From Psammoneis japonica (taxonomy: Eukaryota): DNA of 64,000 bases. Position 1 is the first letter of the stretch; each line of letters opens with the position of its first letter. The stretch spans positions 372,001 to 436,000 of the forward strand of contig QPGO01000021.1 of assembly GCA_008632985.1 (NCBI GenBank), read 5' to 3'. The notes under the pieces were generated by a model, which saw nothing but the letters and a program-made list of their open reading frames with translations, searched no databases and was not told where the DNA came from. Both the position numbers and the translations under genes were made by a program. This document shows, piece by piece, positions 1 through 64,000 of the stretch.

Positions 1-12
1 GCAAGCCAAGCA

Positions 13-4618: not shown

Positions 4619-4662
4619 AGTGTCTTTGTAAATGACACCAAATTGCTTTTTCTTTCAACTTA

Positions 4663-19050: not shown

Positions 19051-19054
19051 AACT

Positions 19055-24165: not shown

Positions 24166-24169
24166 GAGA

Positions 24170-32619: not shown

Positions 32620-34745
32620 ACCTTTCATGCAAAATTCACCCATCTGCGCAGTTAAGAAAGACAACAATGCTGCCAACAAAGGGAAAGAGCAAAGAAAAAA
32701 TAAAAATGTGGGGGTGGCCTGCAACATCATGGGCATCGTTTTTTCTTGGTGTCCGTGGAACTGGAAGTGAGGCTGGGAGCTCATTTTTGAAGTCATGTGG
32801 AGGTGACCTTGCTGAGAACAACAGGTGTTTTCTGGTTTGGCAGCTTGCAGCAATGCATGAATCATGAGAGTTTTCTGCACTGTTCTTTGGTGGTGTTTGG
32901 CAACACTGCACCAATCTGACATTTTTTTCTCAAATGTTTGTTGAGAGCAATTTGTGCTGGCTCTGACACTTCCTCTTCCTTTTTGCCAAAGACAGAGAGG
33001 CACCTTTTTCACTTCATCTCTCCCACACATTTTTGCACCTCTTGACTTCCAATGCAAAAAAATTGGCAAGGCAGACTGAATGACTGAGAAAGGTGAAGGA
33101 AAGCTGGTTGCATTGCCTGCTGGTAAAGAGCAACCCTGCTAATTCTGGGAAGGCACTTTCCACCACACTTGGCTTTGTGGAGTCCGGCACAAGGTTTTGC
33201 TTGCTCTCCTCATCCATGCATGCTGCAGACTCCAGAAATTGAAATGTCTGTGAAGTTGTGCACTGACATTTGCACCAGCATTTGCACACATTTCAATGTC
33301 CCAACTGCTGGCAGAACCATCATAACAGCATTGTGGCACTTCCTCCATGTCTGCCCATTGATGCATCAAGAAGCATCTTCTGCTGGCCTGGCAAGCACTG
33401 TGCAGTGGGGGAGTGCATTGAAGTCCCTGGAGCTGCCATTCTTTTGTTGCTGGCACCAACCACAGTTGACCATGATGTTGCTTGTTTTGTTTTTTTGTTG
33501 TTGTCATTCTGCATTTCCACCATGGTGTTCAGGAGTGGAGTTTGGTGCAAGTTTGGAGTTTGCATTTTGTTTGTGTTCTTTTTCAGCAGTGGTTTTGCCA
33601 GGCAGCCCCATTTCTGCCAGGTTGTTTGCTGCCGCTGGTGACAAGGTGCTCCATTTGCCAGCTCAGGACTGGCCTCTTCATCAAAGGCCAATGTTGTCCT
33701 CTGTGCCAGCATTTTGTGAAGGAGAACTTTCATGTCAGAGTTTGCATGGGGCCGCTGCTGGAGGCACCCATGAACTCCATGATTGCAGGCATGCCAGTGG
33801 GCAGCAATCACAAAGCTTTTGATGTCAAGTGTCACCTTGCTGCTGGAGATGCCATGTGTTGGAAGTTCAATGAGCCACAAGCTGCACAGCATTGCTGGGC
33901 TTGTTGGAGGGGGGGGGCAGCCCACTGAAGGTGAGCTTCCTGACAGCATCAGGTGACTCAGCCAAAAGAGTCACATTCACCTGCAATTAAGGAAGATGGC
34001 AATGCTGCCAATGCTGCCAATGAAAACAAAGAAAAGCAAGAAAAAAAAAACAGCTGTGTTCACCAACAAAAAGATGGGTTCACCATTTCACATGTGGTTG
34101 TGAATGACACAAGAAGAAAAGCTGGGAGCCCCTCATTTTGAAGTGATGCATGGGGGGATGACTTCACCACAGCACACAAATCTGAAGAGTGTTCTGTGCT
34201 TTGCTTTTGGTGGTTGGCAACATTGTGGCAATCCAGTGCTTTTCTTGAGTGATCAACTGCACTCCACCACTGCAGCTGATTTTCATCTTTTTTGACAAAT
34301 GCAGAGAGATGCCCTCCTCACTTCTGCCCATTCCCAAGCTTTTGTGTCTTTTGACTTCAGTTGCAGAAAGATTGGCACAAGGAAAATCAAATGATTGAGA
34401 AAAACAGCACCAATGTGGTGCACCAGTCTGGAGAAACAACTCCACTTTTGGAAAGAGGTGGTGTGTTGTCTTTGCCACCCAGCTCTTTGTTTGTTCTTGT
34501 GGTGTCTGGGGGCTCGAGCTTTCGTTCTCGTTGTCTGCAGAAAATGAGATTTTGGGAGAATCATGTGCAGACATTGACACCAGCATTTGCACATTTCAAT
34601 GTCCCACCTGCTGGCAATGGGAATGGTGTGTGTGTGTGTGTGTGGGGCTGTCAACCACAATCCTCCATTGTTGTTTGTTTTGTTGTTCGTTGTTGTCATT
34701 TTATTTCGGCCATGATGGTGTTCGTGGGAGCGGATCTGGCGCAAG
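32620..34745 (+). repeat. Diverged ~0.8-0.9-kb tandem duplication (~32620-33550 vs ~33950-34745) in a TpA-depleted block starting ~31970
   Basis: Collinear matches: caatgctgccaa, gctgggagc...cattttgaagt, ttgacttc...attggca, accagcatttgcac...atttcaatgtccca(a/c)ctgctggca, gttgtcatt...atggtgttc. Confidence 0.7.
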
Positions 34746-34938
34746 AAGGTTGGAGTCGTCCTCCCATTGTTCTCGTCCTCTTTCGCAATGCCGCACGCGT
34801 GTCCAAAAGATCGCGCGTTTCGAAACGTGCATCGCGTTCCTGTTCCTCATTGTCTTGGCCATCTTCAATCTTGCTTGATCTTCATTATCAATCTGGATTA
34901 TCATTCTTTGCCTCTATGCGAAAACACGTTGTTGTGTA

Positions 34939-43747: not shown

Positions 43748-44110
43748 TTCGTAGACTGGTCCTTTTTTTCACTCTGTTGTGAAACGCCTCTTTGCCCCTG
43801 GGCAAGTGTCGGCTCCGCATCTTCAATCTCTCATGTCTCACATGTTCGATGTTGAACATACAGTAGAGTACGTGCGTGAAAAACCCGGAAAAGATTTGCT
43901 CAAAAAATTGAATGACGTCATCGCGTCTGACTTCTGGCCTGGCTGCCAGCTGCACAACGTTCACAAAGCACAAAAAGGCAACCACAGACCCCCTGCGGTG
44001 AACATCATCTCATAGACTGGTCCTTTTTTCACTGCCGTGAAACGCCTCTTTGCTCCTGGTTCAAGGGCAAGCATTGGCTTGGCATCTCTGCCTCATGTCT
44101 CATGTTGACA
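43722..44110. repeat. Local duplication of the PPR gene's 5' end and upstream region (~43722-43850 copied at ~43982-44110)
   Basis: ccacagac...ggtgaa(t/c)atcat(t/c)tc(g/a)tagactggtcctttttt...gtgaaacgcctctttgc...ctcatgtctca occurs twice. Confidence 0.75.
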
Positions 44111-44799
44111 GAGTCGGAGCGGTGGGCTGGTGTGCCTCTGACCATCCTCTTTTCTTGTGCAACATCGGAGATGTGGCACCTGTGCCTGCTGGTGTGTGAC
44201 ACGAGCAATGTTGTGAGAATGTTGAGCTCAGTTGTTGTCACAAAAAGCAGCAATGTTTGACCCCACCTGAGTGGAGTCCTTCAAAAATCAACAGCACCAC
44301 ACTGGCTGGGGCTTTCTTTTTGACAGCTGCAACGTTGCTCATTTTCTGTGCAGACAAAGTTTGCAGCACACCACAGCAGCAAAACTTGCTGTTCAGCAAT
44401 CCAAGCTGTGCCCTCTTTCCCCATTCCTTCCTTTTCTCAGCATTGCACCTCATTGGTCTCACAGATGTTCCTCACCACAGATTGTTGTTGCAAAAAATGG
44501 CTCTCTCATGGCACGAGGATCTGCACACAGCATTCGAGCAAGTGCCACCACTGCTTTTGCCAGAGGGCTCATGTGTCTGGCCACCACAAAGCCAGTGGTT
44601 TGAAAGAACCCTCAATGGCAATTTGTGTTGTGAGTGGTGTGTGCTCACATTCTTCATGTTGTTCCTCCACAGACAATTGCACCCACAGTGTCTTGACACA
44701 AAAAGAGAAGGCAGCAGCAGCACCAGTGCCAAGCATTTTTTTGTCCAAAGGGTCTCCCAGGGAGTGAAGGACAAAACAGGTGTGACAACTTTGCAAGCA

Positions 44800-47250
44800 A
44801 AAGTTTGATGTCTAGAAATGAAGATTGTGCCACAACATCATTGTCCAGAGCCAATTTGAAAGGGATCTCCCAATGCTGGAAAGGTTGAGGAGATCAAGAG
44901 GGCGGTGGTGGCACCAGCCAAACATGGAAAATTTGAAATGACTGGTGAGCCAAAGTGTGGGGTGATGTGAGGGGGGGGTGCTCTTGGATTTGGCAGGGCT
45001 CATCTTTCATCTGACTGTGGCTGCACTGCAGTCATTTGCACCACATTTTGTGCCAAGTGTGGTCATGAGCAGCTGTGCTCACATGTGCTCCTCAGTGGGT
45101 GGATGCTGATGTGCAGCTGGAAACAAAACTTTTTTAGCCAATGTGTTTTTGCAGGCTGGACAAGCTGTGAGCCTCTCTGACAGCAGTGCACACTTGACCA
45201 GCTGCTTGCAAGAGACAAATTTGTGCCATGTGTGAGGTTGGAGCAGCAGCAAATTCTGGAAGTGGGTTGGCCAAGATCTTGCACTCAGCCTTGTTGTCTT
45301 TGCTCTCCCACACCATCAGGTGCAACAGCAGCAGTTTTTGCTGGCCTCACTCACACACACCGGATGCCCCAGCACCAGTGCTCACACATGAGAGCTCAGA
45401 TGATGAGCATCCTTCTTGTGGTGTGCATGTGACGTGTCGTGTTTTTGAACAACTGCATCAAACTGCTGTGTGGAAGCTGTGGGCCACATGTTTCAGGAAA
45501 AAGAGTGTGCAGATGACATGAGGCATGGGAGGATCAGGGAGATCTTAATGTGTTGCTGTCAAAAATTGGCAATGGTGTGTCCCTTGTGTCAAGAGAGGGG
45601 AAAGGAGTTGGCAGCTTGGCTTGTCAACAGGGCTGAACTGTGTCATCATGCAAGTTGCTTGGGCAGCACCAAGCAACTGGCCAGAGACTGACACCCTGCT
45701 TGCTCACTCATTTCTGACAATGGCAGTGCCCCCCCTTTGCAGAACAGGGTGCTTGATGAGTTTTTGAAAAGTGTGCACTTTCTGCATGGCAGCTTGAGTT
45801 TGGTGCAGTTGGTGCCCCAGGGAATTCTTGACAGATCTTCCAGTGAAGAGTGCCTCTCAGGCTTTCATGACAGCAGGATTTTTCTCATTGTTTCCACAAT
45901 TGATGGGCAAAACACAGTGCCCATGTCATGTGCATGTCCAAAAAATGTTGCAAGCAAAGCCACCTGCTGAAGTCAAGTGCCTCTCCCCCAGGGGTTGGTG
46001 CTGGTTTCCAGCAGGAGATCCCTGACCAGGCAACAACCAGCAGTTCATGAGCAGACTGGCAGCATCATGAGGCAGAAGTTGTGTGGCTGGCTCAAGACCA
46101 AGAGGTGGGCTGATCCAAAGATGACATTTTGAGAGTGACTTGATGGAAGTGTTGATGATGCACCCAGCACAAGAAAAAGAAGGATCTTGCCAAAGTGGTC
46201 AGAGGACTTTGACTCTCAAGGCACAATTTTGGGTCTAGCTGCCAGGGGCACAGAGCATTCAGGAGAGCTCAATGGCATTTTTCTGGCAACCAATTGTGGG
46301 TGAACTGTGCCATTGCCTTGCCAGATGGCTCTGTTGACCCCCGCCAGACTCAAGTTGCTGCAGAATGACAAGCAGCCTGGCTGGCTGCTTGGATGGCAGC
46401 TGCTGATCTTCCCAGTGTTCTTTTGTGTGACAAAAGTGCAGCAACAAGGAGCACATTGCTTGTGCAGATGCACGAGGAAACAAAAGTCATTTGTGAAAGA
46501 AAACAAGCTCAGCATGCTTGGCACCAGGGTCAGACATTGGTTGGCAACAACTTGGGTCACTGAGAAGAAAGCAGTGTTCAAAATCAAGACTGAGGCTCAG
46601 AAAGGTCTCATCTTTGCACTTGTGATGTCAAGATGGTTGGCATGGTGACAGACGGGTCAAGAAGGCCACAGCCCAGCAAAAAGCTGTGGGGCAACACAGG
46701 TGCTTGTGTGGTTAAATCAAGTGTGCAAAAAACAAGTCCAAAAGTCCACCAGGCAGCTTGAGCAGGAGCTGGCACAAAGCAGCACACCCCCATCATGTAA
46801 ATTGCAGCCCACCAGGAAGGCAAAACAAAAGTGAAAATGTTCCACAGCACAGTGAGCACAAACCACCATGGCAGCAAGCAATGAAAAGTGCTCTGGAGAG
46901 CATCCCTGTCTTGACCCGTACACCCACGGTTGTTGAGGGACAGAAGGATGGCCTTCAGGTCAAAACTCACAAAAAACACAGATGATGGTGATGATGATGG
47001 TTGATGAACACGACATGAATCTGAAGTTTGTGGCATGTTTTAAAGAGCAAGTGTGTTCAAACCCATCCTTGAACAATGGAAGCAGTGGAAACAGTGTGGG
47101 TTCATTGTCAAGCAGTTTGCATGGACAATGTGGGTGAGAGCATCAGAAATTGTGAGGACATCCTGAAGATGTGTCTTGTTGAAAGTGTGGCTCTCACTGT
47201 GATGTTCATCTTGCCAATTGCGAGCATCAGTTTCCTGCCATCACAGAGCT
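44800..47250 (-). mobile_element. Highly degenerate, probably Gypsy-type pol remnant within the TpA-depleted block ~43870-47600
   Basis: Weak minus-strand echoes of RNase H (IVHAN; LLAAMVVC...VEHF...LVG) and of the integrase C-terminus (IFHVWL), in Gypsy order. Confidence 0.35.
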
Positions 47251-48103
47251 TTGGACCATTTTTGCAAGGAGATTCCTGCTGTTTTGGCAGCCATGTGAGG
47301 GGCTCTGAGCTTGTTGACAACAAGGGTCAGCAGGGGAAAGGAAAGGAAAGGAAAGGAAGGGCTGAACAAGGAAGACACCAATTCACATGGTGAGTTTCAG
47401 AATCAGATTGGCAACCGACTCTCAAAGCTTGGCTGAAGGATGCCAAGTTGGCTTGTGATGATTGTGGGAGCTCTGGCACATGCCGTTTGAGGGAGTCAAT
47501 GATGAACAGATCGTGGCTTGTGGCAATGTTGTTGTGAATGGCCTGAGCACGATGAGCAAGTCCTGTTGACAGAGGAAACGATCAAGACATTTCAGCAACA
47601 TAGCGAGAAACTGCATGCTCAGGACATGCGGGCGATGGAGATTACCCGTGAAATTATTGATCATTTTAAAGGAAGTCTCCGTGATGATGATTGCAGGGGC
47701 AGTGATGAACAGTTTTCCATGTTCATGTCCCTCGCCCATGCGGCCGACATTTGTACCGCCTACCCACTCGGACGACGCAAAGCCAGCACAAAAAGAAACG
47801 AGTTATGGTGCGGATACTTCTGCCTTTGGAAATCTATTCATGATAAGCTTCTATGCTGCAGTGAAAAGTCTCAACACGGAACACGGCACGGCCGGTTATG
47901 GCGTTGTTGTTTGACCGGTACGATTTGTGCGAAAGTGTCGGAGGAAAATACGAGCATCTTCTTTGTCGACTGAGTACAAGCATGATAAACCGAAGATGTA
48001 GATGTGAGAGAAATTGGTCGGTTATAGGGATTTGAAGCTACGTGTCATGAAAGAGATCAAACCCATGCACAGAGGAAGATACAAAAGTTGAGAGCTCTCC
48101 TAT

Positions 48104-49697: not shown

Positions 49698-50399
49698 CGT
49701 GCAGAAGATTATGGTAGAGATGTAAAAGATTCAGACAAGAATGAGAAGAGGAAAGTTCTGGCGAAGCATACAGTAACCAGAGAAAAAGAAGAAAGATATC
49801 TTTTTAGTACAGTGCATACAGTGCCGGCAGCAGAGACCTAAAGATCCGACGTCATCATTCTAAAAGGAAGTCCTCGTACGAGTAAAAGTACGTAGGGCCC
49901 TCTAGACAAGCTGTGCCATTCTTCTGCCAGAAAGTTGTCAACACATGGCAGCATTCTGAGTTCTCAGTCGCCACTTCTTTTAGCTCGAACTCGGCCAAAT
50001 AGCTCGTGATTTGCATGATTTTTTTTTGAATTTCACCGTGCTTCACCAGCTTAAAAACAGCAAGCCACAAGTCTGTGATGGAGGTGCTGGTCCATCTGCC
50101 AACTCTCATCTGTCTCATGTTTGTTGTGTGTCAAAGAGGCCACACGTGCACCAAATGTTTGTGGACAGACCGCTGCGTTTTGGAGAAATGTCAAGATTGC
50201 CGTCATCGCAATGGGGCCTGACAGTCTCATTTTCGTGCACGATTGGGTGTGAACATGAGTGGTTTTTGCATTCAAAAATGGACACCATCAAAAATCTTGT
50301 TCAAATGCCTTGGCAATTTGGGTGAGAACATGGGGGCAGCTGCCTTGGCAAGAATTGATTGACTCCTCTGTCATGCACATCTGCCTGACACTCAATTGA

Positions 50400-51200
50400 G
50401 GCAGGCAGTTGCTGCCTGGGGTGCTTGATTGGTCCTCACTCTGTCATTCAATGCTGACCAGCAAATGAAGCCCTTGAAGCAGCTTGAATTTCTGGGGGCA
50501 GGTGCTCCATTGTCATGCAAAAAATTCTCGCTCGAACAAAACTCTTGAAATCAACTTGCTCAGCACTGCTCCCCTGCAACAAAATGGTTTCTTGCTCAGC
50601 ACTTAAAATTTGTCTGAGTTGAAAGCTGGGCCATTCAAGCTCAGCTGACACATCACTCTTCAACATCAACAAATGCAGCAGGAACTGCTGGCCTCACCAC
50701 ATGTCATGACAGCTCCTTTGGCGCGCCAATCTTCTGTGACAAAAGATTTAAGAGTGCGCCTTCCATCACATCAAAGTCTTCCAACTTAAATGCCGGCAGT
50801 GAACTGACCGTCACATCTGATTCCACCATGTCTTTTTCAACGCGCTTTCTCTGACAGGATTCTGCCAATGCCACTTGATTGAATTCTGCCATGTCCAAAA
50901 GGAGATTGTGCTTCTGATGATCATGAAGCTGCCATGCCAGGGCTTGTGTGCTCATAATTTGCACATTGCCAAGCACTGCTCTTCCATCCTGTGTGCCATG
51001 TCGACTGGCTCCACTTGCCAGTTCCTCTGAGTCCGAGTTGCCTTCCATGACTGCAACATTTTTCAAAGTTGTGAACCCATCATAAAATGCCAGATGAGCT
51101 CTTGCATTGACATTGGCAATGCCACATGTCTGCAACACATTGTCAACATCTGCTGCGAGTGCTGACATCACCAAAGCCTGAGCTGGTGCTGCTGCCATGC
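50400..51200 (-). mobile_element. Degenerate Ty1/Copia (CoDi-like) gag fragment
   Basis: VLQTCGI...DGFTTL...GRAVLGNVQI...QALAW.L.DHQK...RKRVEK...EDFDVMEGALLNLLSQ resembles the diatom Copia gag N-terminus as I recall it. Confidence 0.6.
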
Positions 51201-51469
51201 TTCCTGTGATGTGAGGATGACAACATGTTGTCCACCATGGATGAACAATGTGACTGTGAGACTCACACAATGGGTGTGGAAAGGAGACTGAATGCTCCAC
51301 GAGAACCATGGAAACAGGTCCACATGGTCAACCGGCAATGAGAGGCCACCCCGCGCCATTTTGTCTGAATGAGCAAATGCTCTGGGCACGAATTAGAGAA
51401 ATGCCAGGCAATGTTGAAGAAGGCAATGGAAGAAGGTTCAAGCAGAGATTTTACTTCACCCAGCTGCAT

Positions 51470-54080
51470 TTTACTTTAGCCTGCTTGCATCATGATGAAG
51501 ACAAGTTCTGGAGTTGTCAGCGAGAAAAGCACTTTCAAATTGTTCATCCAAATAGACTGGTCATTGCGCCAAACCAAATTTGAAATGGATGGGGGGCCCC
51601 AGCATTTTTTTGATGCATCTCACCTTGGTCTGCTTGCATCATGATGATTGGCACGTTGTGGAGTCGTCAGCGAGAAAAGCACACGTGCTTCGTCCAAATC
51701 GACTGGATGCACAGCAGTTTGCATGGCACCAAATTTGAAACAGATGTTTCTACAGTGCGAGCTTCTGTTCCCACTGTAACACACAATGACTTGACATGCA
51801 TTTTACTTTGGCCTGCTTCTTTGCACATGGGTTCACGGGTTTTTTGGGACTGGTGCCAGCAGCTTTGGATGCAACCTTCTTCACAAATCCTGCCAAGGCG
51901 CTCGTTTGCTTTTTGCTGATGGATGATGTGTTCTGCCGTTTCTTGTGCATTGCAGCTTGAAGACCAAGACCTGCAAAGTGAGGCTGAGTTCGTTCCTTCT
52001 TCTTGTTCTCCAGTGGCTTTTTCATTCCGGCGTCTGCTTCCATCTTCCTCATTGCATCCAGGCATGCATTTTGCACGGCATGACAAACATTGTGAAAAGC
52101 CAAGGACTTGTCGTCATGAAGTTGGATCATGTGCCACTGGTCATCAGTCACAATGTGTTCCAGCAGCTCCATGGCGGCTTTAAACTTCTGTGGCTCTGCC
52201 TCCTTGTTCAGAAACCGCAGCTGCAAAAGCCGCTCCTTGGATGGTGATGAAAGGTGTCCATGCTGCTTGAACCAAGTGAGCAACACATGTGAAGACACTC
52301 CTGCACCTGTGCCATTCACCAAGCCATCCACTTTCTCCTGCAGTGTCAGCTTCTTTTTCTTCTTCTTCTTTGAAGACTTGTCACTTGCAAACCGTGTTGA
52401 GAGCAGTGTTGTGGCAATGCGAGGTTTTGGCTTTGGCACCGAGGCCGCCACAGGCTGAGTCGCAGCCACTGACTCGTCAGAATCAATGCAAGGTCGAGAA
52501 GCAGCCGGCACGTCATCAGCATCTGGTGTGCCGCAGCATTGGCAGCCACACCGTTTGGAGTGGAGGCAAGGTTTGCATCAACAATGACACCACAATGGAT
52601 CACGTCATCTTGATTGGACATTTCGAAGAACTTGAGACGTGTCCGTGGTGTCGCCATCACGAATCTTCGCTTCCGACGCAGCATGCTCCAACAAGGTGCG
52701 TGTGATTTCATGGTTCTGACAAAGCTCCTTTGAAACTTCAGCATGATGCCGAATCACAGCAGCCATGCAGGAATGCAAGAAGGGCCGCAGCTCTCCACCT
52801 TTTAGAAATTGAGCAAGGGAGTCAGAGATCATGTGCAATTTTTCAATGAGACGTTCAACGTCCTCTTGTGCATGGCTCCCAAGACATTCCAAGTTCGGAG
52901 CACATTTCTTGGTGGGAGTGTCATCCCAGCCCATCATCGCGTTTGCCGCCAGAAGTGTGAGTTGCAGTGCAATGCGTTTGCAAGTCTTGCCATTGGGAGC
53001 TCCTGGCACCCATCCAACCCGAGCGTCCGCTTCTTCAACAGATGCTCCTTGACGCGAATTCAAGAAGGCAGCCACACCAACTCAAGTGGACTTGGAAGAA
53101 TGATCATTCTGCAGGACCGGATTTGCCTTGCTTCGAATGATGCTGGTCAATTTTGCTGCAACATGCCGGTCACTCACGCTCCACAAGTCTGGGAAAGTGC
53201 ACTTGTGGAGCTCCTTCTCCATGCCGTCTGGACGACAGAGACCTTTCTCACAAGAATGGAAACACACAAAAGCACGGCAGAGATCAAAGAGATGGGACTT
53301 CTAGTTTGGTGGGAAGAGGAGCCCATGCAAATCCACAGTCTTCGGCTCACACCACGTTGCTTCCAAATTCTCATGACACAAATCCCAGAACCACTCATCA
53401 TGCCATTGATGCCTCACTTCCCCTCCACGTCCAGCAGCCACAGCGCCCATCAAAATCCAGCAACGCTGCTGAAGAGGGCCGTTGTTCATCATTGGACAAT
53501 TGCATTGCAGAACGAGAGCAAGAAGCAATGTCTTGATGTCGTTTGCGAGTGCACCATTCTCTCGTCTCAACATTGAATTTCTGTCTGTCACAAGAATGGC
53601 ATTTCGCTGCTTGGCTCAAACACATTCTGAAGCCACGTTTGGAGCCAGAGCCAAAGTCCTTTTGTCAGAACACTCCATGCTGAGGAGGTTGGCTTTGTCA
53701 GTGGCCTTTGCCACATCTTTGAACAGAGGCTTGCACCACTTGTCCTCATCTTCCCAGTCAGGGTGCTTGGGGAACTTCATTTTTAGTGCTTCTTTGACCT
53801 TTCCAAAAATTCACTGCTTTGCATCAACTCCCAATGGCCCGTTGGAGGGATTGTCGTGCCAACAGATGGGCTCACATGACAAGAACTTGCTGAAGCGCAT
53901 CACAAGTGTCCTGAGGTGGCATCCATCCACATGATGTTCCTCCAACCCGTGAAACGGCTTGTCTTGCTTTTTGTCTTGAAACGCATCAAACATTTTGATT
54001 GCAGCCTTGTTGCCACTTGTGGCAGAAGGGGCCCCAGACGCCTCAGTGATTGGCTCCCCAAGGGTCAAAGAGGGCATGCT
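51470..54080 (-). mobile_element. Degenerate Crypton-like tyrosine-recombinase DNA transposon; short direct repeats at its 3' side (~51480-51585, ~51630-51740)
   Basis: Minus-strand YR-type motifs GRGGEV, (Y>H)SSKST(R>*)VG, ARVGW and KT(Y>C)KR, with no RT associated. Confidence 0.55.
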
Positions 54081-54342
54081 GCATGGCTGCTCTGTGGTTG
54101 CGGGTGGCTTCTGTGGCTGCGTCTGTGTTTTTGTGAGACGACATCTCCTCCGTGCTGTGTCTCTCGTCTCGAGCTTCAGCACGGCATCACAGAAGTCTTG
54201 CGGATGATGGTGAGTCTGATGATGTAAAAATTCTGGTGCGGTTCAAGGTCATGTGTGCACACAGACATGGTGTGTTCCATTGGCTTCAACTTTGAGAGAA
54301 CTTTTGGGTTGCTTCTTCTGAAAGTTGCCAATTCTATGCCGG

Positions 54343-54408
54343 AAAAAGGGAGGGACTCGAACCCCCGACCTCGTCCTTCTTCGGCGCATTTCTGCCACTC
54401 AATGGGAA
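54343..54408 (-). pseudogene. tRNA-derived sequence (tRNA pseudogene or SINE head) with B-box
   Basis: Minus strand reads AGTGGCAGAA...GAGGTCGGGGGTTCGAGTCCCTCCC-TTTTT: D-loop-like, T-arm (GTTCGA) and oligo-T. The anticodon arm is not canonical. Confidence 0.45.
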
Positions 54409-54504
54409 TCTTTCGAAAATGACCCGTGACGTAAAAAGCATAAAATGGTTGTGGACGCCTGTAGAATCTACACGTTTTTGTACTGAAACTGTTGTGTTCA
54501 CACA

Positions 54505-54613
54505 ATTTGTGCAAAAATAGACTTGACTGTTGTCGGGTCAGGTGCTGTTTTTGCAAATGCATTGAAGAAAAACACACCTGATCAGAAAACAGTCAAGTCC
54601 ATTTTTCGCAAAG
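54505..54613. repeat. Imperfect ~110-nt inverted repeat (hairpin)
   Basis: tttgtgcaaaaatagacttgactgtt...tcaggtg pairs with cacctga...aacagtcaagtccatttttcgcaaa. Confidence 0.7.
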
Positions 54614-55789
54614 TTAAAATTCACTGAGGACAGACAGACAGACTTTTCAATGATTGTCTTGGTGCTGTTCTGCACATTTCCACGTAAATGACTCTACAGC
54701 GCGAAAGATTGCTGTTGAGCTCAGACAGAAGATGATGATGCGGCAATGCATTGTCTCATTGCTGGTGGCACCAGCAACAAGCAATGAGAAACTCAAGGCT
54801 GGATCGTCGAGCAGAGGCATTTTTTTGAACAGCTCGAATTTTTCCTGTTTTCTCTCGCACTTCGCCCGTGTTGTTTTTTGACACCTCTGAGCACCCCCAA
54901 AGCACTTGTGAGTGTGTCTGGCCCCCATCAGGGCTGTTGGACCTCCATGTGAACTGCGCTTGCCAACCTTCAAATGCCAACTGTCGGATTCGGTGCGGTT
55001 GTCATTTTCAATGAACCGCCATTTTTCGCCAAAATCGCGCTGCTTGGGGGAGACAAGCCACAACTTTCCAGGAAAGGCTGACAACTGGCATTTGACTGGC
55101 TGCAGACACATCTGCAGTTGTCAAGCCAGAGATCCTGCATGGTCACAACCATCGCCAGCACACTCTGTGACATCTTTCGAAGGGACAAAGTTCGACCTGT
55201 CGCTGAATTTTTTTTTGGCAAAAGTGTGCGCGTTCAGTGTTGTGCACCCTTTCTTTCAAAAAAAATTGTGAGCTTGCAAAAAACAGACCTCTGCTTGCCA
55301 ATCCATCCTCAATCTGTCATCAGTGCAAGCCGCGCCACTTTTCTCCTGCACGGATTGCGCTCTTGCACAGAGGGCGCCCCTGCACGGGGCGCATGCCTGG
55401 CCGGCGATTGCAATCTGCTCGTCCGACCGTGCAATTGCTTCACAATTGCAGTCAACCAATCGCTGCTCCACAGCAATGCAGTCAACCACTTGCAATCTGA
55501 TTGCTGTGGAAAACTTTGCAAATTGGCCGGCACTGCGAGCAAGCATTGAGCGGGCAAATCGCGCTTGAGTTCACATGGTGTTGACACTCCCTCTCGAATG
55601 AAGAATCTGCCAACCGCAAAGCAACTTTCTGGCAGACTCAAATTTAACTGCAATGAGCCCTTTGGTGAGGATGTTGGTGTGTTGCAAGTGACGCGTTCCA
55701 GCTCTGGGTGGGACCTCGTGCTGCTGCACTGTGACATCAACAGTTTTTTGGATCACGTCGCATGTCGCGCACGCACATTTCTACGAGTC

Positions 55790-56720
55790 ACATTCTACGA
55801 AATTGTTTCATGCTCCCTGTTTTGCGAAGCCAAAGGCTTTCTGTTTTCAACATTTGTGAGAATGAAAATGCACTGGGCACATTCTTTGACATCTGAAGAA
55901 CACACCCGGGCAAACTGTCAATGATGTGCTCCAAGCATGAAGGAGGAGACACGTTCGTAAAATTGCCTCTTTTTCTGTTGGCAATCATTCACATTTTCAT
56001 TGCAGCACAAATTTGCTGCGCAGCTCACATTCTGCGGGCCCAATGTCACACGGAGTCCCACCTGGGACTGGAACCCATCAAGTCTGTTGCAATCTTGCAC
56101 ACAACAACTCTGTTCGGTTTCAGTTGCGAGCAAAACCAGCAACACTTGGCTGCGCAGTGCTTGGACCTTGGCGTCATTTGTCCAGGTTCCATGTGAGCCA
56201 GAGTCAAAGCCCCAGCATTGTCCTCCCACATGGCAGTTTTGATGGCATTGGTGGTTCCCAGACCAACTCCAATGCCTTGAAAAATGGCTTGCATGGCGCG
56301 AAGAAAGGGAAGGACGGTTTTCATGCAAGTGGAGAGAGCGTTGTGCTCTGTGCTCTGCCTCCCCATGGTTGAGAGTGCGCAATCTCGGGTGCAAGCTTGC
56401 TGGACCAGATGACAGGACAGACATGCTCCAGATGCAGGTGGGAATTTGTGTGACGTTGGGCCTGTGGAATTCTGCATGCAAGCTCCGCAGTGAAATTGTC
56501 AGGTCATGAAAATGTCAATGACAGCCAACAGAAAAAGAGGCAATTTTGTGAACGCGCAAACTCATCCACGATTTAAGCACATCATTTTTCACTTGGCTGG
56601 GTGCACTCTTCAGACATTGAAGAATGCACCCAGTGCATTGTTGTTCCCAAAAATTCTTTAAAAATAAAACGTCTGGGGCTTTGCAAAACAGCGAGTCGTC
56701 TGGAACAATTCTGTGGGAGA
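55790..56720. repeat. ~215-bp diverged inverted repeats (55790-56002 and ~56504-56720) flanking a Copia RNase H fragment
   Basis: The reverse complement of the left arm matches the right arm: atgaaaatgt.aatga...gccaacagaaaa.gaggcaatttt...agcacatcatt...cttcaga...aagaatg..cccagtgcatt...gcaaaacag. Confidence 0.75.
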
Positions 56721-58450
56721 AAACATGCAGAAATGCACACGAGAAACATGCGGCTGATCACAAAAAACACTTGTGTCACACATTGGCACTGCAAGCTCCC
56801 ACCTGAGGCTAGAGTGCATCAACAGTTTGAAGTGCAAATGACAAATCCTGCACAGCTCTTGATGCAAGCTGGGTCTTGCTTGTCTTCATGAGGCCACAAT
56901 CCAGCAAAACAGGAGTCAACAAACATGTCAATGTCAAAGTCTCCGGATGGCTTGAGGACCAGACCTTCCTCAAGCGTGCCCTTCAGGTGTCGTCCGATCC
57001 TTTCAAGGGCTGGTTCATGTGAGAGCAGTGTGGACTGTGAACAAAGCAGGCTGCTGAGCTTGTGGCACAGGGGATGTGGGTGTCCAGGCCTTTGGCAGAC
57101 AGCCTGCATTGAGGGCGTCGATGACACATTTGGCTGGGCCACTCTGAGTCAGTTTGACAGTGCCGTTGTTGGTGTCACGGTCCATGTGCACACCCGAAAA
57201 TCCCATGATGGAATCTTTGACTTTGACGTGCTCTTGTTTTGGTGAAAAGAAAAGTGTGTCGTCAATGTGCACAAGGCAGATGACTTCATCTCCGACACAA
57301 ATGGACAAGGATCCACGTCATCTTCAAGTTTTGATTTGAGATGAAGAAAGAAATTGCGCGGTCCTTGTTTGAGACCACAGATGGTCTTCTTGAGTTTCAG
57401 CACTTTGCCTGGTTTTGAGCATCTGCAAGGCATTTGCACGAATGTGCCAGAGCATTCGCGCTCTTCAGGTGTCATGGAATCCCATTTTGGGTCCTTGTTG
57501 ATTGGTGCATGGACAAAAGCCACAACATGGTTGACTTGTTTGGTGGAGAGTTCAAGAATTTGAGACAATGTGTGCATCCGCCAAACTGTCATCCAATTGA
57601 CAACCTGAGCACAGGCATCAAAACAATTGACACCTTCCAATTGCTTGTCACCACAGACGCAGAAGCGGGCTTTTTGTTTTTGGATTGATCCATCGGGATG
57701 CCATTTGCATTTGAAGGCCCAAGTGCATGTGTTCATCCAGTCTTGGCGGTCAACTTCTTCCCAAGCATCTTTGCCACTGAAGAGGGAATCAATTTCAATG
57801 TCACAAGCTTTGAGATGGGCTGCACAATCTGGTCCACTCATTGCTTGCTCCCAAGTCAGATTGTCAGCTCAGCATCAGCTGCGAAAGCCAGAGGGTGCAT
57901 TTCGTTGAGTGCACCGTGTTCTTGATTGGTGTTGTTGTTGAAGACATTGCTCACAGTGCACACAAGTCCTTGGATCAGAGTGCATTTGTCATGCTGTCCC
58001 ATTGCAATGCTGTCAAAAATTGCTTGTTCAGTGTTTTGGACTTGACAGAGCATTTGGGATTCTTGTGTGCAGTTGGCGATTTGTTGGTTGGAATGCGGAT
58101 GTTGGCCATCATGGCCTTGATGAGTCAATCCAGTTTCTTGATTGTGCGGCCACTCTGTGTGTGAGTTTAAGGAGTCAGAGCATTCGGAGTCTGTTGCATG
58201 GACTCGGCTCCCTCTGAACCAAAACACAGATCATCAGGCAAGTCGTGATGGTCAACAAGAGACAACAGTTTGTCATCACTGTTGTTGCTGAATTCATTGA
58301 TTTCAACTCCCTCTGGAGCATTGAGTTGCATGGATCTGGCACACCATCTCCATCCAAATTCACAAGAAGAGGACTGTCAAAGCAAACCACATGGATTGAG
58401 TCACATTTCAAAACTTGATGCCAACCAAGCAGGTTTTGAAATGTCACACC
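56010..58450 (-). mobile_element. Degenerate Ty1/Copia (CoDi-like) pol, RT + RNase H, interrupted at ~56480-56810
   Basis: WAFKCK..PDG..K.KARFCV.GDKQ, LKKTICGLKQGPRNF, CLVHIDDTL (YxDD site), RIGRHLKGT, FAGLWPHEDKQDP, EDNAGAL and MTPRSKH. Confidence 0.9.
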
Positions 58451-58973
58451 TCAGAGCTTCTGTTGCTGATTTTGATGATGTGTTCATGATCAAGGCAGCA
58501 GTGAAGGCAGGAAAGGACACATGCTAGTGTGGTGTTGTTGCTCACTAGAGCAGCACCACTAGATTGTGGTCTGTGTTGTGGCTCTCCTGTGCTGGGTGAA
58601 GGAGCCTGTGCAACTTGTTCATGCAGCAATTGCACTCATGGGCATTCACCTTGGCATGGCTTTGACACCCCACATGCTGAGTCTACCAAGTGTTGCCTCG
58701 AAGGCATCATGCTCTGCTAGCTAGAGAGGGCCCAGAGCACATTAGTGAGGATGGCATCTCAGTGAAATGCTGTCAATTCGAAATGAAGATTGCTCGATGT
58801 CGCATGGTGAAACTAACCTTCTCGTTGCTGCTGCGGAGCGCTTTGTAACAAATGCATGAGTGTAGCACAGTAGGTTGTTAGATCAGATTTTAGTAGTTGG
58901 ACACCCTTTAGCCGAGATCTAAGCCACGAAGTGTCCAAGGGGTCAACAAAATGTTCGTATAGAAAAGTTTAGT

Positions 58974-61612
58974 TCATTTAGAGCTACCTGCAGTAGGTTT
59001 CACCAGCTCGAGAAGTTGAACACCTTTCGGACCAAACAATTCTTCGCAATTGCTGACATCAACGGTAATGAGATGATCGTGAAGACGGCACTGGCATTCT
59101 CCCTTATTCATGCACTGTTTCTTCGCGAAGTAAACGTTTTCAGCGATGGGGCCTGGGGTTGCAGACGCTGTGCTCTCCACTGGATATTGAACCAGAACTC
59201 GAACCATGTCGCGCTTTCGCTTCTTTCCTGTCTGGTTTTGTACATTGATGCCCGGGTTCTTCTTTCAGGGGTTATATCGGCCTCTTCGATACCGAACAAA
59301 GCTTCTTTGGTTTCCTCCCAAAGGCCACGCAACTCAATGGTCTTCAGGCTCGAAGGAGGCTTGCTGCTGCCTCTATTCTCGCGATAAAACAATTCAGGTA
59401 CAACTGTGCGCAGTGCTTCCGGCTGGTTGAGCTTAAACTTCAACTTCGCCTGCAAAGCAGCGAAACGAAAATCGTTCCAGGCACGCGTCCGCATAAGAAA
59501 CGCTACATCAGGTCCAAACAGTGTATCAGGGAAGCAGAATGGTGCAACCGCACCTTCGAAACGAGCGTTAACAGCTGCCTTTATCCACTGCATGGTGTCA
59601 AAAGGCGCTCTGCACTTGATCGCAAGCACGCCATAAGAAGACCACTCTGGTACCATGAAATTCACCAAAGAAGAATCTTGTCCAACCTGAGATCTCAGTA
59701 TTTTCTCGAATCTAGTTTGGATAGAAGGGAGCAAGAATTCTTCAAAAACATTGCCCCTCTCCGAAGATGACGTGGTGCTTGCAATTTTCTTTGAGATGGA
59801 ATCTTGCAGTCCAAAAAAAGCGATGCTTGCCTGGATAACCAGGGTCTCCCAAATAACAGCCTCTACAAAGTCAGCCCCAGTATCGCTTTCCATATGCACG
59901 GACGCGATACCCGCTTCGATCATGTCCGCAGCTTTTTTCTTCACCAGTTGGCGGCTACCACCAAACGAGAATTCAAAGGTGGCTCGTCGAAACGTTTCCT
60001 GCGCTTCCGACCATTCTTGGCCCGCCATGTCAAACATCTTGCTGACGGCTGAGAAGGCCGATTTATCCTGCAAACTCCATGTAAACCGCCTGTCCTCGTC
60101 CTTTGAGTTTGCAGTACAAACCTCGATATATCGATTCAACGATCTAATAAGAGGTTGCTCTGCGAGATCGAAGTTTCCCCGAGGTTCACGCTTAGACGTT
60201 GTTTGCTGCCGTTCAATATACGTTTCAATAAACGTTGCTACCCACCGTGGTCGTCCTTTCAGCCAGTCACCAGCATGCCGGACAAGGTCATCCTTCACAT
60301 CGCGTAGATCAAGGAACTTGCTCATATACTGAATCACGTCGTCTCTGGACATATTCTTCAGTCCAACGAAACAAAAAGAGTGATCCTTTAGATTTGGTTT
60401 GACCACCAAAGATCTTGCCGCAGCTTTGTATGCTTTGATTGACATACCGGTCCCACTAAAGCAAGGAAAATGGATTATCTCCATTGTCAATTGTAGGTTA
60501 GTCAAGCCTTTGAGGAATGCAGAGTAAGCCGACCGCGGCTCATTTCCATCTGTGGACAAGAACACGCCCTTCAGTTCCGTCAAGAGCACCTGTGCCTCGT
60601 CCATGAAGCAGCTATGCCGGTCTAGCTTTCGAGTCTCATCCATAGAACACTCCAACTTGTTTTTGACGATCTTCCGGGAGACATCCAGAAATATATCGCA
60701 TCCCAGGACATCTTCTGGAAATAGCTGAAGTAAAAGCCATTCGTAGCAGCTCAGGCCTCGTCTTCGCGTTGACAACAGCACCGTATTGATCCCGTGAAAC
60801 ACTTCTGTCCGCACACAGAGCAACACCTGCAGCATTTTCTGAACGTCCTGAAGATTTTTTACACTGAGTGCTTTACGGTCGTCATGGTCTGAGGGGATTG
60901 GTATCATCTTCTCAGCACAATGTTGGATCAAGAATGCGACATCTCTTGAACCTGGATTGTATTTTGGGTCAGCCGCAGCAGACAGATAAAAGCCGTAGTT
61001 GTGGGAGAGATATTCAAATATGGTTCTGGTTTTCCCAGCACCAGATGTTCCGTACAAAGCGATAGGACCTATTTTCTGGGACCTTTCAATATAATTGTAA
61101 CCACTCGTTTTCTTGTGCTCCTCGTTTTCTAGGTCGTGAAGAAGTAGAGACGGTCTCTTTTTGTTCCCAATAAGGGCCGGTACACCGGTTTCGTTTCCTC
61201 TCCAATAACATTTAAAGGCGGCTTCATCGCTGATTTCGAAGCATGGGAGCGACGGCGCATTGCGATCCCATTGTTGGAGATGATCTTTTACCAGGTGTTC
61301 CATACAAAGGGGTTGCGGCGCCTGTGACACCTGCTGCAAGCCTTCGTGTTTCTGCTGCAGAGTGACCACAATGAGAGGACTTTCATCAGTTGTTGTATCC
61401 AAATCTTTCACTAGCATTCCAGGGCGGAGAGGGTCGTCTTTTGTCGAGTCGGCACCCGCAGCGAAGACCTTGAGCTCGGGAGCGGCACAAGCAAGACGCT
61501 CGCCCCATTTTGTCTTGATCGCATCCTTCAAATCATACACATCAGCACCATCTTGCACTTTCACTTTCGCCACCGGTGCACCGTCGAGCTTGTACCAAAT
61601 TTCGATCGTCAT
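58974..61612 (-). CDS. Crinkler (CRN)-like protein: ubiquitin-like N-terminal domain, P-loop NTPase, REase-fold C-terminus; apparent frameshift near 59210
   Basis: N-terminus IWYKL...VYDLKDAIK...APELKVF...PLIVV, Walker A GTSGAGKT, Walker B CFMDEAQ, and FPDTLFGPDVAF...LQAKL. The C-terminus continues in ORF 58974-59207. Confidence 0.75.
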
Positions 61613-61812
61613 TCGTCATGGTGCCTGATCGCGACACACAACAACACGAAAACACACGGCGAGGCGCGCGGGGCACGACCGGGCTCCTGCGGTTTACAAT
61701 AGCCCACGTTCCTACCGTACTGCACACCGTGAGATCCACGCGAGCTTCGGCACGGCACGCGCGAACCTGCATCAACCCGCGTGCGTCATTGGAACTGTGG
61801 ACCAGGTTGCAA

Positions 61813-64000
61813 GCGGCTCACGCCGCCCGTCTTGTTCCTTCTCCTGCGGCTCTCTATGACAGTGCTATCTAGAGATCTTCTAATGATGGACTGGAATGGC
61901 TTTACTAGCGGATGCGCAAGCCTCATTTCCAAAAACCCAAGCTGGAACGGCAGGGCCAGAGGGCAGGAGAGGTGGGAGCATCAAAAACCATCTAGCGGCT
62001 TCTTGCTCTTTGTTGCTCTTCGGAAGAATGAGTGAAGCAAACGAGAGAAGAGCAGAAAAAACCGTCATTTGCTCGCCAAGTTCGCGCAAGCACGTTCAAA
62101 TTTGAATTCAAATGGTTTGCATGACCCAACGGTCAAATGCGGGTCATTTGCCTCGTCGCACTGCACAAGGTGGGCGGCTCACGCCGCCCGTCTTGTTCCT
62201 TCTCCTGCGGCTCTCTAGCGCCATCTAGAGATCTTCCAATGATGGACTGGAATGGCTTTGCTGGCAGATGTGCAAGCCTCATTCCCAAAAACCCAAGCTG
62301 GAACGGCAGGGCCTTCCAGCAACCACCCACAGTGCCGTGCACTTTTGGGAGGGTGGGTGGGTTGAGGCAGGAAGGCTGTGGTGATCAGGCGTCTTGAGGA
62401 TTTTGAGGGACGTCAGCATTGGGGTGGAGGACGAAGTCGCCACCGGCGAGCATGTCGCGAGCGAAGTTGCGCATGACTGGTTCTGCTTGCAAGTGCAGGT
62501 GTCGCAACATTTCGTCGGATCGCCAGCGGCCTGAGAGCCGAATGAGATCGGTGTCTGCGCGGGCACAAAGGAGGGCCATTGCTCCGGCGGCACGAAGACA
62601 CCGAGCGGCAACATCTCGGGTGGTGAAGCCGAGATTAGCCGGACCGAGAGCAGTGACAGCATTGCGCAGCATGCTGGTGATGTCAGCCGGGAACACACGA
62701 CGCCAGGTGTTGTTTTGAAAGTGAACACCAAGGGGTGTGTCAGGGAGCGCACCGTGGGTGCGCAAGTGTTGGACACGGCGGATGAGGGCTTGAACCGGGC
62801 ACAGGTGGGGGTGACCGGAAAGACCAAGCCCTGGAACTTCGCCTCGCACTCCATTTTTCTGGGTGGCAAAGGTGAGAGTGGCGAAGTCTGCTGTGTCAAG
62901 GTGTGCAAGTGGAACTTGCATGGCACCCAGGTGAGCACCACCAGACGCAAGCCGGACATCGGCGAGACGAAAGGGGGTGGTGTCTGATGGTGTTGCGGTG
63001 CACTCGCCAGGCCGTGACAAGAAGAAAAAGGCAAGTGCAATCATTTCAGCAATGGCTTGTGTGCCCGGGTCATTGCTGAGGGCTGCGGCGGTCATAATCC
63101 ATTGCAGCACTGCAATTGGGACCGGTTTTACGCGGTCTGGGGGTGGATCCTGCTTCTTGTAAAAGCGGACTTGCCGGGTGAGGTGGAAATCCATTGTGCC
63201 TTGGGATGTGTGGCGTGGATCCGGGGACCCCATTGCAGCGAACGTTTGGCCAACCGAACGTGCGGCATCTTCAGCGGTTCTTCCACGGACGGGATTGCCC
63301 ATCGGCGCGAGGACTCCTGTGCGGTGTCGGTGCAAGAAGACTTGGAGGAAGACAACAGGGTCGTCAACGTCTTCGAGGAGTGGGTCAATGGCCAAAGAGG
63401 AGCAGAACTCTCGCCATTTGTCCCAATGGGTGTTGGCGGCGGAGGCTCTGGAAGAGGTGACGCCATGCTGGACTGCGCGTTGAGCAGCATTGAGATCACG
63501 CATGAACTCAGTTCTGGTGGAGGCGTCCAGAGACGCCAGGAGAGTTTCTGCAGACAGTGCAAATTAAAGTGGTGCAAAAATTCACGGTTGGACAAAGACT
63601 GCAGTCGTGAGGCATCGTCAGCGGCAGTGTTGAGGCATCCAGGCAGGTGGTCATGCAACCCCAAGTGGCGATGGCAGCGTTGATGGCAGGATTGGCATCG
63701 AAGCAACCGGGAGGCGGGTTTGACGGCAGTGGTGGCACCTTTACGTTGCCAACACATGGTGCCTGAATTGTCGGTGTGTGAAAGACTGGCACGTTCACGG
63801 ATGTCAAAACAGTCGGCGGCGCCGAAGGACTGAATGACACTGCCGGCAAGTTCCAGGTCTGTGTTGGTGATGGGACCGCGTGGGTTGGAGAAAGTGGAGA
63901 GTTGACTGCTGACACTTTTGGGAAAGGGCAGTCGCCACACTGCAGGACCCGCATCTCTCTGTTGACAGCGTCTGCAATTGCCAAAACGGAGAGTGGCTGC
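61813..64000 (-). mobile_element. Ngaro/DIRS-type tyrosine-recombinase retrotransposon, 3' part, with split direct repeats (62174-62313 and 61813-61957)
   Basis: The RNase H ORF (ITNTDLELAG, TDN, WQRKG, NTAADDASR) overlaps a YR ORF. A repeat-spacer-repeat arrangement follows, consistent with B1-A2-B2. Confidence 0.85.
62385..63503 (-). pseudogene. Tyrosine recombinase of the Ngaro/DIRS element; open frame but the catalytic Tyr reads His
   Basis: FFFLSRPGECT, QKNG, CPV, ARCLRAAGAMAL and GRWRSDEMLRHL, with CAC at 62499-62501 where Tyr is expected. Confidence 0.85.

Follow-up and report, generated by a model that had tools for sequence, protein, structure and literature searches.

This analysis concerns a pair of direct repeats of about 140 bp in a 64-kb window of the diatom Psammoneis japonica (contig QPGO01000021.1; by window we mean the whole stretch of 64,000 nucleotides that was analysed, numbered from its first letter). 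The repeats are interpreted as B1 (inner copy) and B2 (outer copy) at the 3′ end of a dead DIRS-order tyrosine-recombinase (YR) retrotransposon of Ngaro/PAT-like type, which lies on the minus strand next to a Crinkler-like gene. At four sites the outer copy reads TA and the inner copy reads CA or TG. We consider it quite probable that these four differences are TpA losses of the inner copy, produced by a TpA-specific hypermutation of genomic DNA that operates in non-genic domains. The comparisons presented here establish the polarity of the change, its specificity for TpA, its symmetry between the two strands and the domain structure of the window. That the four differences arose in place while the outer copy owed its protection to a position beside the gene has in our judgement slightly less than an even chance. 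That they were inherited from an already mutated parent, through the replication cycle of split-repeat elements or by recombination, is distinctly possible, and other origins are unlikely.

In a scripted alignment, the leading 44 nt of the two repeats, 3′-most in the element, were identical and were followed by 5 extra nt in the outer copy. Over 140 aligned positions there were 8 substitutions, all of them transitions. Four are TA in the outer copy versus CA or TG in the inner copy, three are CpG transitions (with the CpG state in the inner copy at one and in the outer copy at two) and one belongs to neither class, exactly as the preliminary description of this DNA had reported. The differing nucleotides are concentrated within the six TpA of the outer copy (4 of 12, versus 4 of 128 elsewhere; Fisher p = 0.0019), and this link to TpA is beyond chance. 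The rest of the element contains 9 TpA in 2094 nt, which predicts 0.62 per 145 nt, so that six in the outer copy are far in excess (Poisson P(≥6) = 4.8e-5). They do match the density of the flanking gene domain, which predicts 5.1. The outer copy is clearly exempt from the loss of TpA: rho TpA is 0.08 in the interior of the element (6 TpA in 1687 nt), 0.07 in the spacer between the repeats, 0.32 in the inner repeat and 0.80 in the outer repeat. No further copy of the repeat or of the element was found by blastn elsewhere within the 64-kb window.

The loss of TpA extends over much of the window. A two-state segmentation on TpA positions, with analyst-chosen parameters (emission of 0.035 and 0.004 per nt, switch rate of 1e-4), yielded eight depleted and seven normal domains. 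The depleted domains amount to 27,670 nt, or 43% of the 64 kb, with rho TpA of 0.02–0.09 and rho CA/TG of 1.44–1.98, and the longest gap free of TpA is 2076 nt. The normal domains (36,330 nt) are centred on genes and have rho TpA of 0.52–0.65 and rho CA/TG of 1.13–1.22. Host genes supported by Pfam matches were found in six of the seven normal domains, which overrun the long open reading frames (ORFs) by ∼50–760 nt, a rough measure taken from ORF ends. The Pfam scan of the depleted domains covered 77 of 81 long ORFs, the remaining four belonging to the element. At E ≤ 0.001, 75 of the 77 were without a match, and the only matches were RVT_2 and one weak HTH. Transposon proteins were recognised in two of the eight depleted domains, namely the RVT_2 match at 57152–57868 and the YR element itself. 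The former is a copia-type relic on the minus strand (25 bits, below the cut-off) in a 239-aa frame without Tyr. The last boundary (61906/61907) lies inside the outer repeat, 294 nt upstream of the ATG of the Crinkler-like gene. The preliminary description had argued for a position-dependent process that spares DNA near a gene. The alternation of eight depleted with seven gene-centred domains bears out the first part of this claim, while gene proximity as the cause of the sparing is plausible rather than established.

CpG behaves differently from TpA at the domain edges. It is low in the depleted domains only (rho 0.13–0.58), yet rho CpG is 0.78 in the YR element. Across the 14 domain boundaries TpA density flips within 100 nt, while CpG falls gradually over 200–400 nt inside the depleted side (4.8, 3.4, 2.0, 1.6 and 1.2 per 100 nt). 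The sharp edge of the one and the gradual fall of the other place the TpA edge nearer to the genes than the edge of CpG decay; the onset of CpG depletion is ∼200–300 nt inside the TpA boundary. Old repeat pairs in the depleted domains carry CA-versus-TG double differences, seven in an inverted repeat with 201-nt arms and three in a 63-nt direct repeat, a pattern that independent resolution of the same TpA or CpG in the two arms would produce. The inverted repeat (55830–56676, arms 71% complementary) is probably an old terminal-inverted-repeat element that decayed in place.

The polarity of the change was determined from protein outgroups and from sibling copies of the element. At five Tyr-majority columns of the recombinase alignment the window reads H, Y, C, H and H, and at five such columns in the tail of the reverse-transcriptase polyprotein it reads C, H, H, C and H. 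Nine of these ten conserved Tyr codons, that of Tyr335 included, are now CAY or TGY. Replacements found only in the window were scored at 10 recombinase columns of at least 80% conservation plus column 60, and at 10 columns of at least 70% conservation plus two Tyr columns in the reverse-transcriptase tail. Of the 23 replacements so obtained, one T>C or A>G step at TpA accounts for 15 (14 if I224P is left out, which passes through a Leu CTA codon present in sibling contigs); the other eight comprise three CpG transitions, three transversions and two multi-step changes. None of the 23 is a T>C or A>G change outside TpA. At a TpA content of 3.5%, TA>CA/TG would account for 2.3% of random single changes, and P is about 1e-17.

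The sibling contigs gave the same direction. At 62533, 62557, 62833 and 63016 they have the codons TTA, GTA, CTA and TTA, and the window has TCA, GCA, CCA and TCA. The sibling TA codons encode the residue conserved in the outgroups, Leu or Val (Ile at 62833), and TA accounts for 0.64, 1.00, 0.52 and 1.00 of the depth, respectively. All four informative sites are thus TA>CA, and at least two of the losses (62557 and 63016, where the TA share in siblings is 1.00) are private to the window copy. Among the best 40 of 271 variant rows, five have TA in siblings versus CA or TG in the window, three adjacent pairs are CA-versus-TG double differences and none has TA in the window versus CA or TG in siblings. 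Site 5 of the repeat (Table 1) exists in three states, CTAG in the outer copy, CTGG in the inner copy and CCAG in two contigs. Three such states make TA the middle one, the sole alternative being an unseen CCGG ancestor. A recombinase relative from a separate JGI source (P0003, 71% identity) reads H, C, H, Y and C at the five Tyr columns and, to judge from its sequence, was damaged independently by the same kind of change in another data set. This protein contains 2 Tyr, 16 His and 9 Cys.

Together, the protein outgroups, the sibling copies and the nearly TpA-free remainder of the element support loss of TpA in the inner copy. In the preliminary description the inner copy had been mutated at TpA in place. 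The polarity holds, while the words ‘in place’ can be called plausible and no firmer, given the identical 44-nt block and the apparent majority of the inner letters in the family. A second proposal, that a family consensus with CA/TG at the four sites would overturn the polarity, had to be abandoned as an invalid test, since the family copies are themselves mutated. If all copies are driven in the same way, a CA/TG consensus is silent on polarity, and intact masters or protein outgroups are needed.

The reverse polarity, with an ancestral inner copy and an outer copy that acquired TpA by ordinary C>T/G>A mutation or by a process like repeat-induced point mutation (RIP), can draw on two points. 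Each of the eight differences is expressible as C>T/G>A (six in the outer and two in the inner copy), and most family copies seem to have the inner letters. Yet the element and 43% of the window are nearly devoid of TpA, whereas RIP creates TpA. In addition, 15 of the 23 replacements and four of the four sibling sites are TA>CA/TG and none is the opposite, and the outer copy would have to evolve at ∼9 times the private rate of the interior (11 private changes in 2043 nt). We had at first expected TpA to have been gained as in RIP; this view was dropped on the basis of the dinucleotide profile and of the polarity in outgroups and siblings, and we now regard it as very unlikely.

The strand distribution of the changes bears on the molecule that was mutated. 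On the sense strand of the element the 15 polarised changes divide into nine TA>CA and six TA>TG, or 11 and 8 when the four repeat sites are included; the repeat pair alone provides two of each. Had the template RNA been edited, the sense strand would have A>G changes only, and had it been the first cDNA strand, T>C changes only; the presence of both outcomes argues against either. ADAR-like A-to-I editing before insertion, with its preference for a 5′ U, remains attractive in one respect, as the TpA context resembles the ADAR neighbour preference, a likeness raised in the Discussion of a preprint on the chlorarachniophyte Bigelowiella natans (10.64898/2026.01.13.699255). However, B1 and the 5′ part of B2 would have been in the same RNA, and B2 nevertheless kept six of six TpA (P = 0.0014 at the inner survival of 2/6). 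Moreover, the depleted domains fill intergenic stretches without a recognisable retroelement, and the B. natans mutations arise in resident single-copy DNA. We consider editing of RNA or cDNA hardly credible. The occurrence on both strands (9 versus 6), the boundary inside the element and the B. natans precedent support a process acting on double-stranded genomic DNA, and they agree with the earlier proposal that genomic DNA rather than RNA or cDNA was the substrate.

The context of the TpA that survive suggests a preference of the mutator. Normal-domain contexts were used as a proxy for the unknown ancestral ones. The 92 TpA surviving in depleted domains are enriched in TTAA (odds ratio 6.9, p = 2e-8), CTAG (3.0) and CTAA/TTAG (2.6), and poor in ATAC/GTAT (0.06) and in ATAT (0 of 92 versus 93 of 1374 in normal domains). 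RTAY sites (R, purine; Y, pyrimidine) are lost first and YTAR sites last longest, which suggests that the mutator prefers RTAY and avoids YTAR. The two survivors of the inner repeat and the single one of the spacer are all CTAG, and none of the six TpA in the outer copy is RTAY. The four losses of the inner copy, two in mixed and two in YTAR contexts, belong to the same classes as the four recent losses of the interior. No flank rule was found for the outcome CA versus TG; a hand tally of mixed-context sites gave five for the (R,R) strand and three for the (Y,Y) strand.

We propose that a hypermutation of A:T to G:C confined to TpA, converting it to TpG or CpA, would have made the four losses of the inner copy. 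Deamination of adenine on either strand by a putative enzyme would be the simplest chemistry. The process would work on non-genic domains and leave genes and flanks of ∼50–760 nt untouched. It would also have deprived the remainder of the element of ∼90% of its TpA, converted Tyr codons to those of His and Cys, wiped out TAA and TAG stops and outpaced CpG decay. The outer copy, with its normal TpA content and the domain boundary running through it, would have kept its TpA for a reason that is itself conjectural.

One such reason is the position of the outer copy, 201–345 nt upstream of the ATG of the Crinkler-like gene. In favour of an origin in place, the lost sites of the inner copy are in the same slow context classes as the private losses of the interior. 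On this view B1 and B2 would have been alike at insertion, and the inner copy would then have lost TpA as the interior did, while the outer copy was in the exempt flank of the gene. Position would thus have protected a member of a multi-copy repeat, an argument against homology as the targeting cue. The high copy number of the family is apparent from the contigs of a public run (X1), in which word depth was ∼1000 for the interior and 3500–4700 for B, far above the ∼50 of single-copy contigs. This comparison covered 61958–64000, that is, the spacer, the inner repeat and the interior of the element.

A number of observations weigh against an origin in place, or against the hypermutation reading as a whole. 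All eight substitutions and the indel fall outside the 44-nt block (P = 0.03–0.05 under an even spread), and CpG is changed at none of five sites in the block versus three of four outside (Fisher p = 0.048). The best 40 of 271 variant rows, all with a share of at least 0.39, include none in the inner repeat (62174–62313) and none at the nine lost Tyr-codon sites. The letters of the inner copy therefore appear to be the majority among B copies, a reading that depends on the ranking of the rows as read and on contigs that drop rare variants, and most TpA losses seem to be common by descent to ∼20 copy-equivalents. Three positions of the spacer A2 are near 50% in the family. Finally, the comparison of the repeats involves only four sites in a non-coding sequence that itself has no direct outgroup, in P. 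japonica the process is known from sequence signatures only and its enzyme is putative, and no record states how run X1 was sequenced.

These observations can be accommodated if the asymmetry was inherited. In the model of Goodwin and Poulter for A1-B1A2B2 elements, only the untranscribed ends are reportedly regenerated, from the internal repeats. The B1 of the parent would already have been poor in TpA, and at insertion B1 would have served as template for no more than the 3′-most 44 nt of B2. The 96 nt on the 5′ side of B2 would derive from a B2 with TpA via the RNA, or from an unmutated master via template switching, and the Crinkler-like gene would be nearby by coincidence or would merely preserve what arrived. 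The identical 44-nt block with the indel at its edge and its five unchanged CpG are in keeping with this course. So are, indirectly, the apparent majority of the inner letters in the B pool (best 40 of 271 variant rows) and the lack of an alternative letter at a share of at least 0.39 at the nine lost Tyr sites among the rows listed. The three A2 positions near 50% suggest that the split repeats of the family carry inherited differences, as if A1 and A2 differed systematically. Inheritance, however, merely moves the asymmetry, since some earlier locus with B1 mutated and B2 not is still needed. The window copy also lost TpA after it separated from its siblings (62557 and 63016, share 1.00), and the inner losses are of the same context classes. 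The published split repeats of young copies are 99–100% identical in two reports (PMC6681497, PMC4157794): young elements of other families have 100%, 99% and 96% identical split repeats in the former, and the split repeats are called ‘identical’ in the latter. We believe that inheritance deserves serious consideration without being the course to be expected.

The boundary might also have been set by the element itself. The differences could then have arisen in place by a mutator that follows the transcript or transcript-guided silencing, with B2 left uncovered past the poly(A) site. On the sense strand of the element, the outer repeat has AGTAAA (61901–61906) and the inner repeat AGCAAA (62257–62262). 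We take AGTAAA to resemble a poly(A) signal, for diatoms as a candidate only; if it is the poly(A) signal of the element, it persists in the terminal copy only. The differences do lie in the part of B2 nearest to AGTAAA. Guidance by small RNAs, however, would strike both B1 and B2, which are homologous, and the normal domains follow host genes throughout the window, not the ends of elements. Such an element-set boundary is improbable.

Modified bases cause systematic miscalls in nanopore consensus sequences. A base caller for long reads that misread a modification at TpA in silent chromatin could mimic much of the loss of TpA, and the dependence on domain and context would fit base modification. 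The following results speak against such an assembly artefact. In run X1, 0.64 of the 31-letter words of 61600–64000 were present; hardly any such word from the element would be expected to match had the ∼70 missing TpA been real TA in the reads. In the same run, 138 of 542 aligned contigs were at least 99% alike, and contigs at a word depth of ∼50 reached 315 kb. These figures would imply accurate reads, with the reservation that there is no record of the library type and that the assembly may itself have been built from X1. Lastly, P0003, a separate protein from a JGI source, has Tyr>His/Cys at different columns. We consider the artefact the least credible of the alternatives.

The stronger proposal that we would put forward, tentatively, is that a diatom has a TpA-specific A:T>G:C editor of duplex DNA. 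It would cover all chromatin outside active genes, act to near saturation and faster than CpG decay, and prefer RTAY over YTAR. Promoter-proximal chromatin, rather than repeat homology, would fix its edge to within ∼90 bp, and the outer repeat would have survived only by landing ∼200–350 bp upstream of a start codon.

The coordinates of the features are given in Table 1. In the element, the last ORF is followed by B1, a spacer of 216 nt and B2, and this order of B1-A2-B2 after the last ORF was read as the layout A1-[ORFs]-B1-A2-B2, with A1 expected beyond the end of the window. One family contig has the start of A (the 61958–62173 stretch) attached to the end of B, i.e. a B-A junction in another copy, and in two the match to the spacer begins at 61983, beside another left flank. 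The end of the element is ∼200 bp upstream of the Crinkler-like ATG at 61612.

Table 1. Positions of the repeats, of their differences, of the associated ORFs and of the TpA domains in the window
Feature	Position	Strand	Remarks
Outer repeat (B2, 3′ terminal split direct repeat)	61813–61957, 145 nt	−	6 TpA, rho TpA 0.80
5-nt insert, outer copy only	61857–61861	not assigned	At edge of 44-nt identical block
Spacer, read as A2	61958–62173, 216 nt	−	1 TpA
Inner repeat (B1)	62174–62313, 140 nt	−	2 TpA, both in CTAG
Site 1	outer 61863/inner 62219		TG vs CG
Site 2	outer 61866/inner 62222		CTAT vs CCAT
Site 3	outer 61881/inner 62237		CTAA vs CCAA
Site 4	outer 61904/inner 62260		TTAC vs TTGC
Site 5	outer 61907/inner 62263		CTAG vs CTGG
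Site 6	outer 61910/inner 62266		GCGG vs GCAG
Site 7	outer 61915/inner 62271		GCGC vs GTGC
Site 8	outer 61928/inner 62284		TTTCC vs TTCCC
Degenerate putative tyrosine-recombinase ORF	62385–63503	−	372 aa, one Tyr
C-terminal part of reverse-transcriptase polyprotein ORF	63131–64000	−	290 aa, no Tyr, open at window end
Crinkler-N-domain protein gene	59108–61612	−	834 aa; PF20147 24.4 bits vs cut-off 24.6 (borderline)
Normal domain around Crinkler-like gene	58525–61906		rho TpA 0.54, right edge within outer repeat
Depleted domain 1	1–493		
Depleted domain 2	9847–11924		
Depleted domain 3	16412–19716		
Depleted domain 4	23118–27690		
Depleted domain 5	31962–34885		
Depleted domain 6	43870–47600		
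Depleted domain 7	50053–58524		
Depleted domain 8	61907–64000		9 TpA in 2094 nt, rho TpA 0.09, rho CpG 0.78

Of 8000 candidates scored for the recombinase ORF, 777 were related to it at E ≤ 0.001, and the closest of these had 72% identity. On its own it gave no Pfam match, and a PDB sequence search with its profile gave none either. PF00589 was touched by 9 of 35 aligned members (the window ORF and 34 relatives), weakly, with a best E of 0.015, and cluster-atlas neighbours carry PF00589 in 20% and 86% of members. R164, E167, K216, R304 and W327 are invariant in the alignment and Y335 is nearly so; by their numbering we presume that these residues resemble the catalytic set of Cre. Tyr335, the presumed nucleophile, is His in the window copy. 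The ORF at 63131–64000 had no Pfam match itself, and 12 of its 32 longer relatives (43–62% identity) have PF00078, the reverse-transcriptase domain being located beyond the window. The assignment of the 834-aa ORF as Crinkler-like also took cluster-atlas neighbours into account.

A 22-nt word of the repeat had no match in metagenome contigs, where the recombinase protein found one short locus at 42% identity; it found no locus in viral contigs and six in genome contigs, all filed under bacterial metagenome-assembled genomes (MAGs). The split repeats were absent from all five recombinase loci that were checked. The MAG-filed relatives are on short contigs and are 42–52% identical to a eukaryotic retrotransposon recombinase, and they are probably eukaryotic contamination of the bins.

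Several other features of the window were noted. Its genes are long uninterrupted ORFs, and its cullin gene is 74–85% identical to named diatom proteins (from Odontella, Seminavis, Phaeodactylum and others). A single N is present at 7548. On both strands of the depleted domains we counted 80 TAA and 53 TAG versus 1357 TGA. Because TAA and TAG are nearly gone, depleted DNA has many long ORFs, with 81 of the 154 stop-to-stop ORFs of at least 110 aa, often overlapping in several frames and nearly all without Tyr. These look like by-products that are gene-like only in appearance. A 366-aa ORF (13–1113, minus strand) spans from a normal domain into the first depleted domain, and its 3′ part may be read-through from missing stops.

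TpA-directed hypermutation of resident DNA has one description so far, a 2026 preprint on a chlorarachniophyte (10.64898/2026.01.13.699255). The present window suggests the same signature, much stronger, in a diatom, in which 43% of 64 kb is almost without TpA. In the window, this repeat pair alone shows the edge of the process at near-nucleotide resolution within one repeated element, and it bears on the recognition cue of the mutator (homology, transcript or chromatin) and on the identity of the enzyme. If an editor of this kind does act in a diatom, TpA hypermutation would be an old and widespread genome defence of the Stramenopiles–Alveolates–Rhizaria lineages rather than an oddity of a single chlorarachniophyte. 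Base-editing work would also have an interest in a naturally occurring TA-specific enzyme that converts A:T to G:C in duplex DNA. In such genomes the divergence of repeat pairs is unusable as an insertion clock, the consensus sequence of a transposon family is not ancestral, and the loss of TAA and TAG yields many long spurious ORFs that mislead gene callers.

With respect to its architecture, the element resembles A1-[ORFs]-B1A2B2 elements such as Ngaro, PAT and VIPER, as described in three reports (PMC8547959, PMC4157794, PMC6681497). As in Ngaro/PAT-like elements, the recombinase ORF is last and is followed by B1-A2-B2, the relatives of the upstream ORF have a reverse transcriptase, and a B-A junction is present in other copies. 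Unlike these elements, the window copy is dead, with nine of ten conserved Tyr lost, and its A1 and 5′ half lie outside the window. PAT and Ngaro are separated by a methyltransferase domain, and we place the element as Ngaro/PAT-like only.

Three known processes share some features with the one described here. RIP in fungi is likewise a dinucleotide-specific transition hypermutation that kills transposons and leaves compositional domains. It turns CpA into TpA, however, and so enriches TpA, while the window is depleted in TpA; it also needs repeat homology, whereas here a multi-copy repeat has escaped in its outer copy, and in B. natans single-copy DNA is hit. ADAR A-to-I hyperediting of repeat RNA has in common the A>G change and the preference for a 5′ U/T neighbour. 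It marks one strand of a retro-copied element, whereas in the window both strands are affected about equally, as is intergenic DNA without marks of a retroelement. The A>G confined to the transcript strand that ADAR would produce was not found among the polarised changes, 9 of 15 being T>C on the sense strand. Decay of 5-methylcytosine at CpG also feeds CpA and TpG, is here limited to non-genic domains and accounts for three of the eight repeat differences. It cannot remove TpA, and in the element the loss of TpA (rho 0.09) is far ahead of the loss of CpG (rho 0.78).

The closest counterpart is the process in B. natans, described in the preprint of Mettrop et al. (bioRxiv 10.64898/2026.01.13.699255). 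In mutation-accumulation lines of this organism, 231 of 302 nuclear mutations were in two integrated viral regions; 230 of these 231 were A>G or T>C, all 230 at TpA, at a rate of ∼6e-7 per site per generation. The B. natans genome was reported to contain 124 clusters, poor in TpA and rich in CpA + TpG, in ∼95 Mb, its low-TpA coding sequences to be enriched in reverse transcriptase and DDE endonuclease, and an ADAT2-like adenine deaminase was proposed as the enzyme. The two cases are alike in that A:T>G:C change is confined to TpA, gives TpG and CpA, is bound to regions and leaves low TpA with high CpA + TpG. They differ in host, a chlorarachniophyte (Rhizaria) versus a diatom, and in the kind of evidence, as B. 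natans mutations of resident genomic DNA were seen in real time while the diatom window is known from its sequence signature. They also differ in degree: rho TpA is reported as 0.45 in the main B. natans region, compared with 0.02–0.09 over 27.7 of 64 kb here, and TpA makes up 2.3% of dinucleotides in the window versus a reported 6.0% in B. natans. Only in the window is every intergenic stretch affected, with CpG decay alongside and boundaries along gene flanks. Our literature search found no report of TpA-directed hypermutation, in diatoms or generally, beyond this preprint. The process is therefore of a kind described once, in another supergroup lineage, and as far as the literature was searched its occurrence in a diatom, its near-saturation, its boundaries at gene flanks and its context preference are new.

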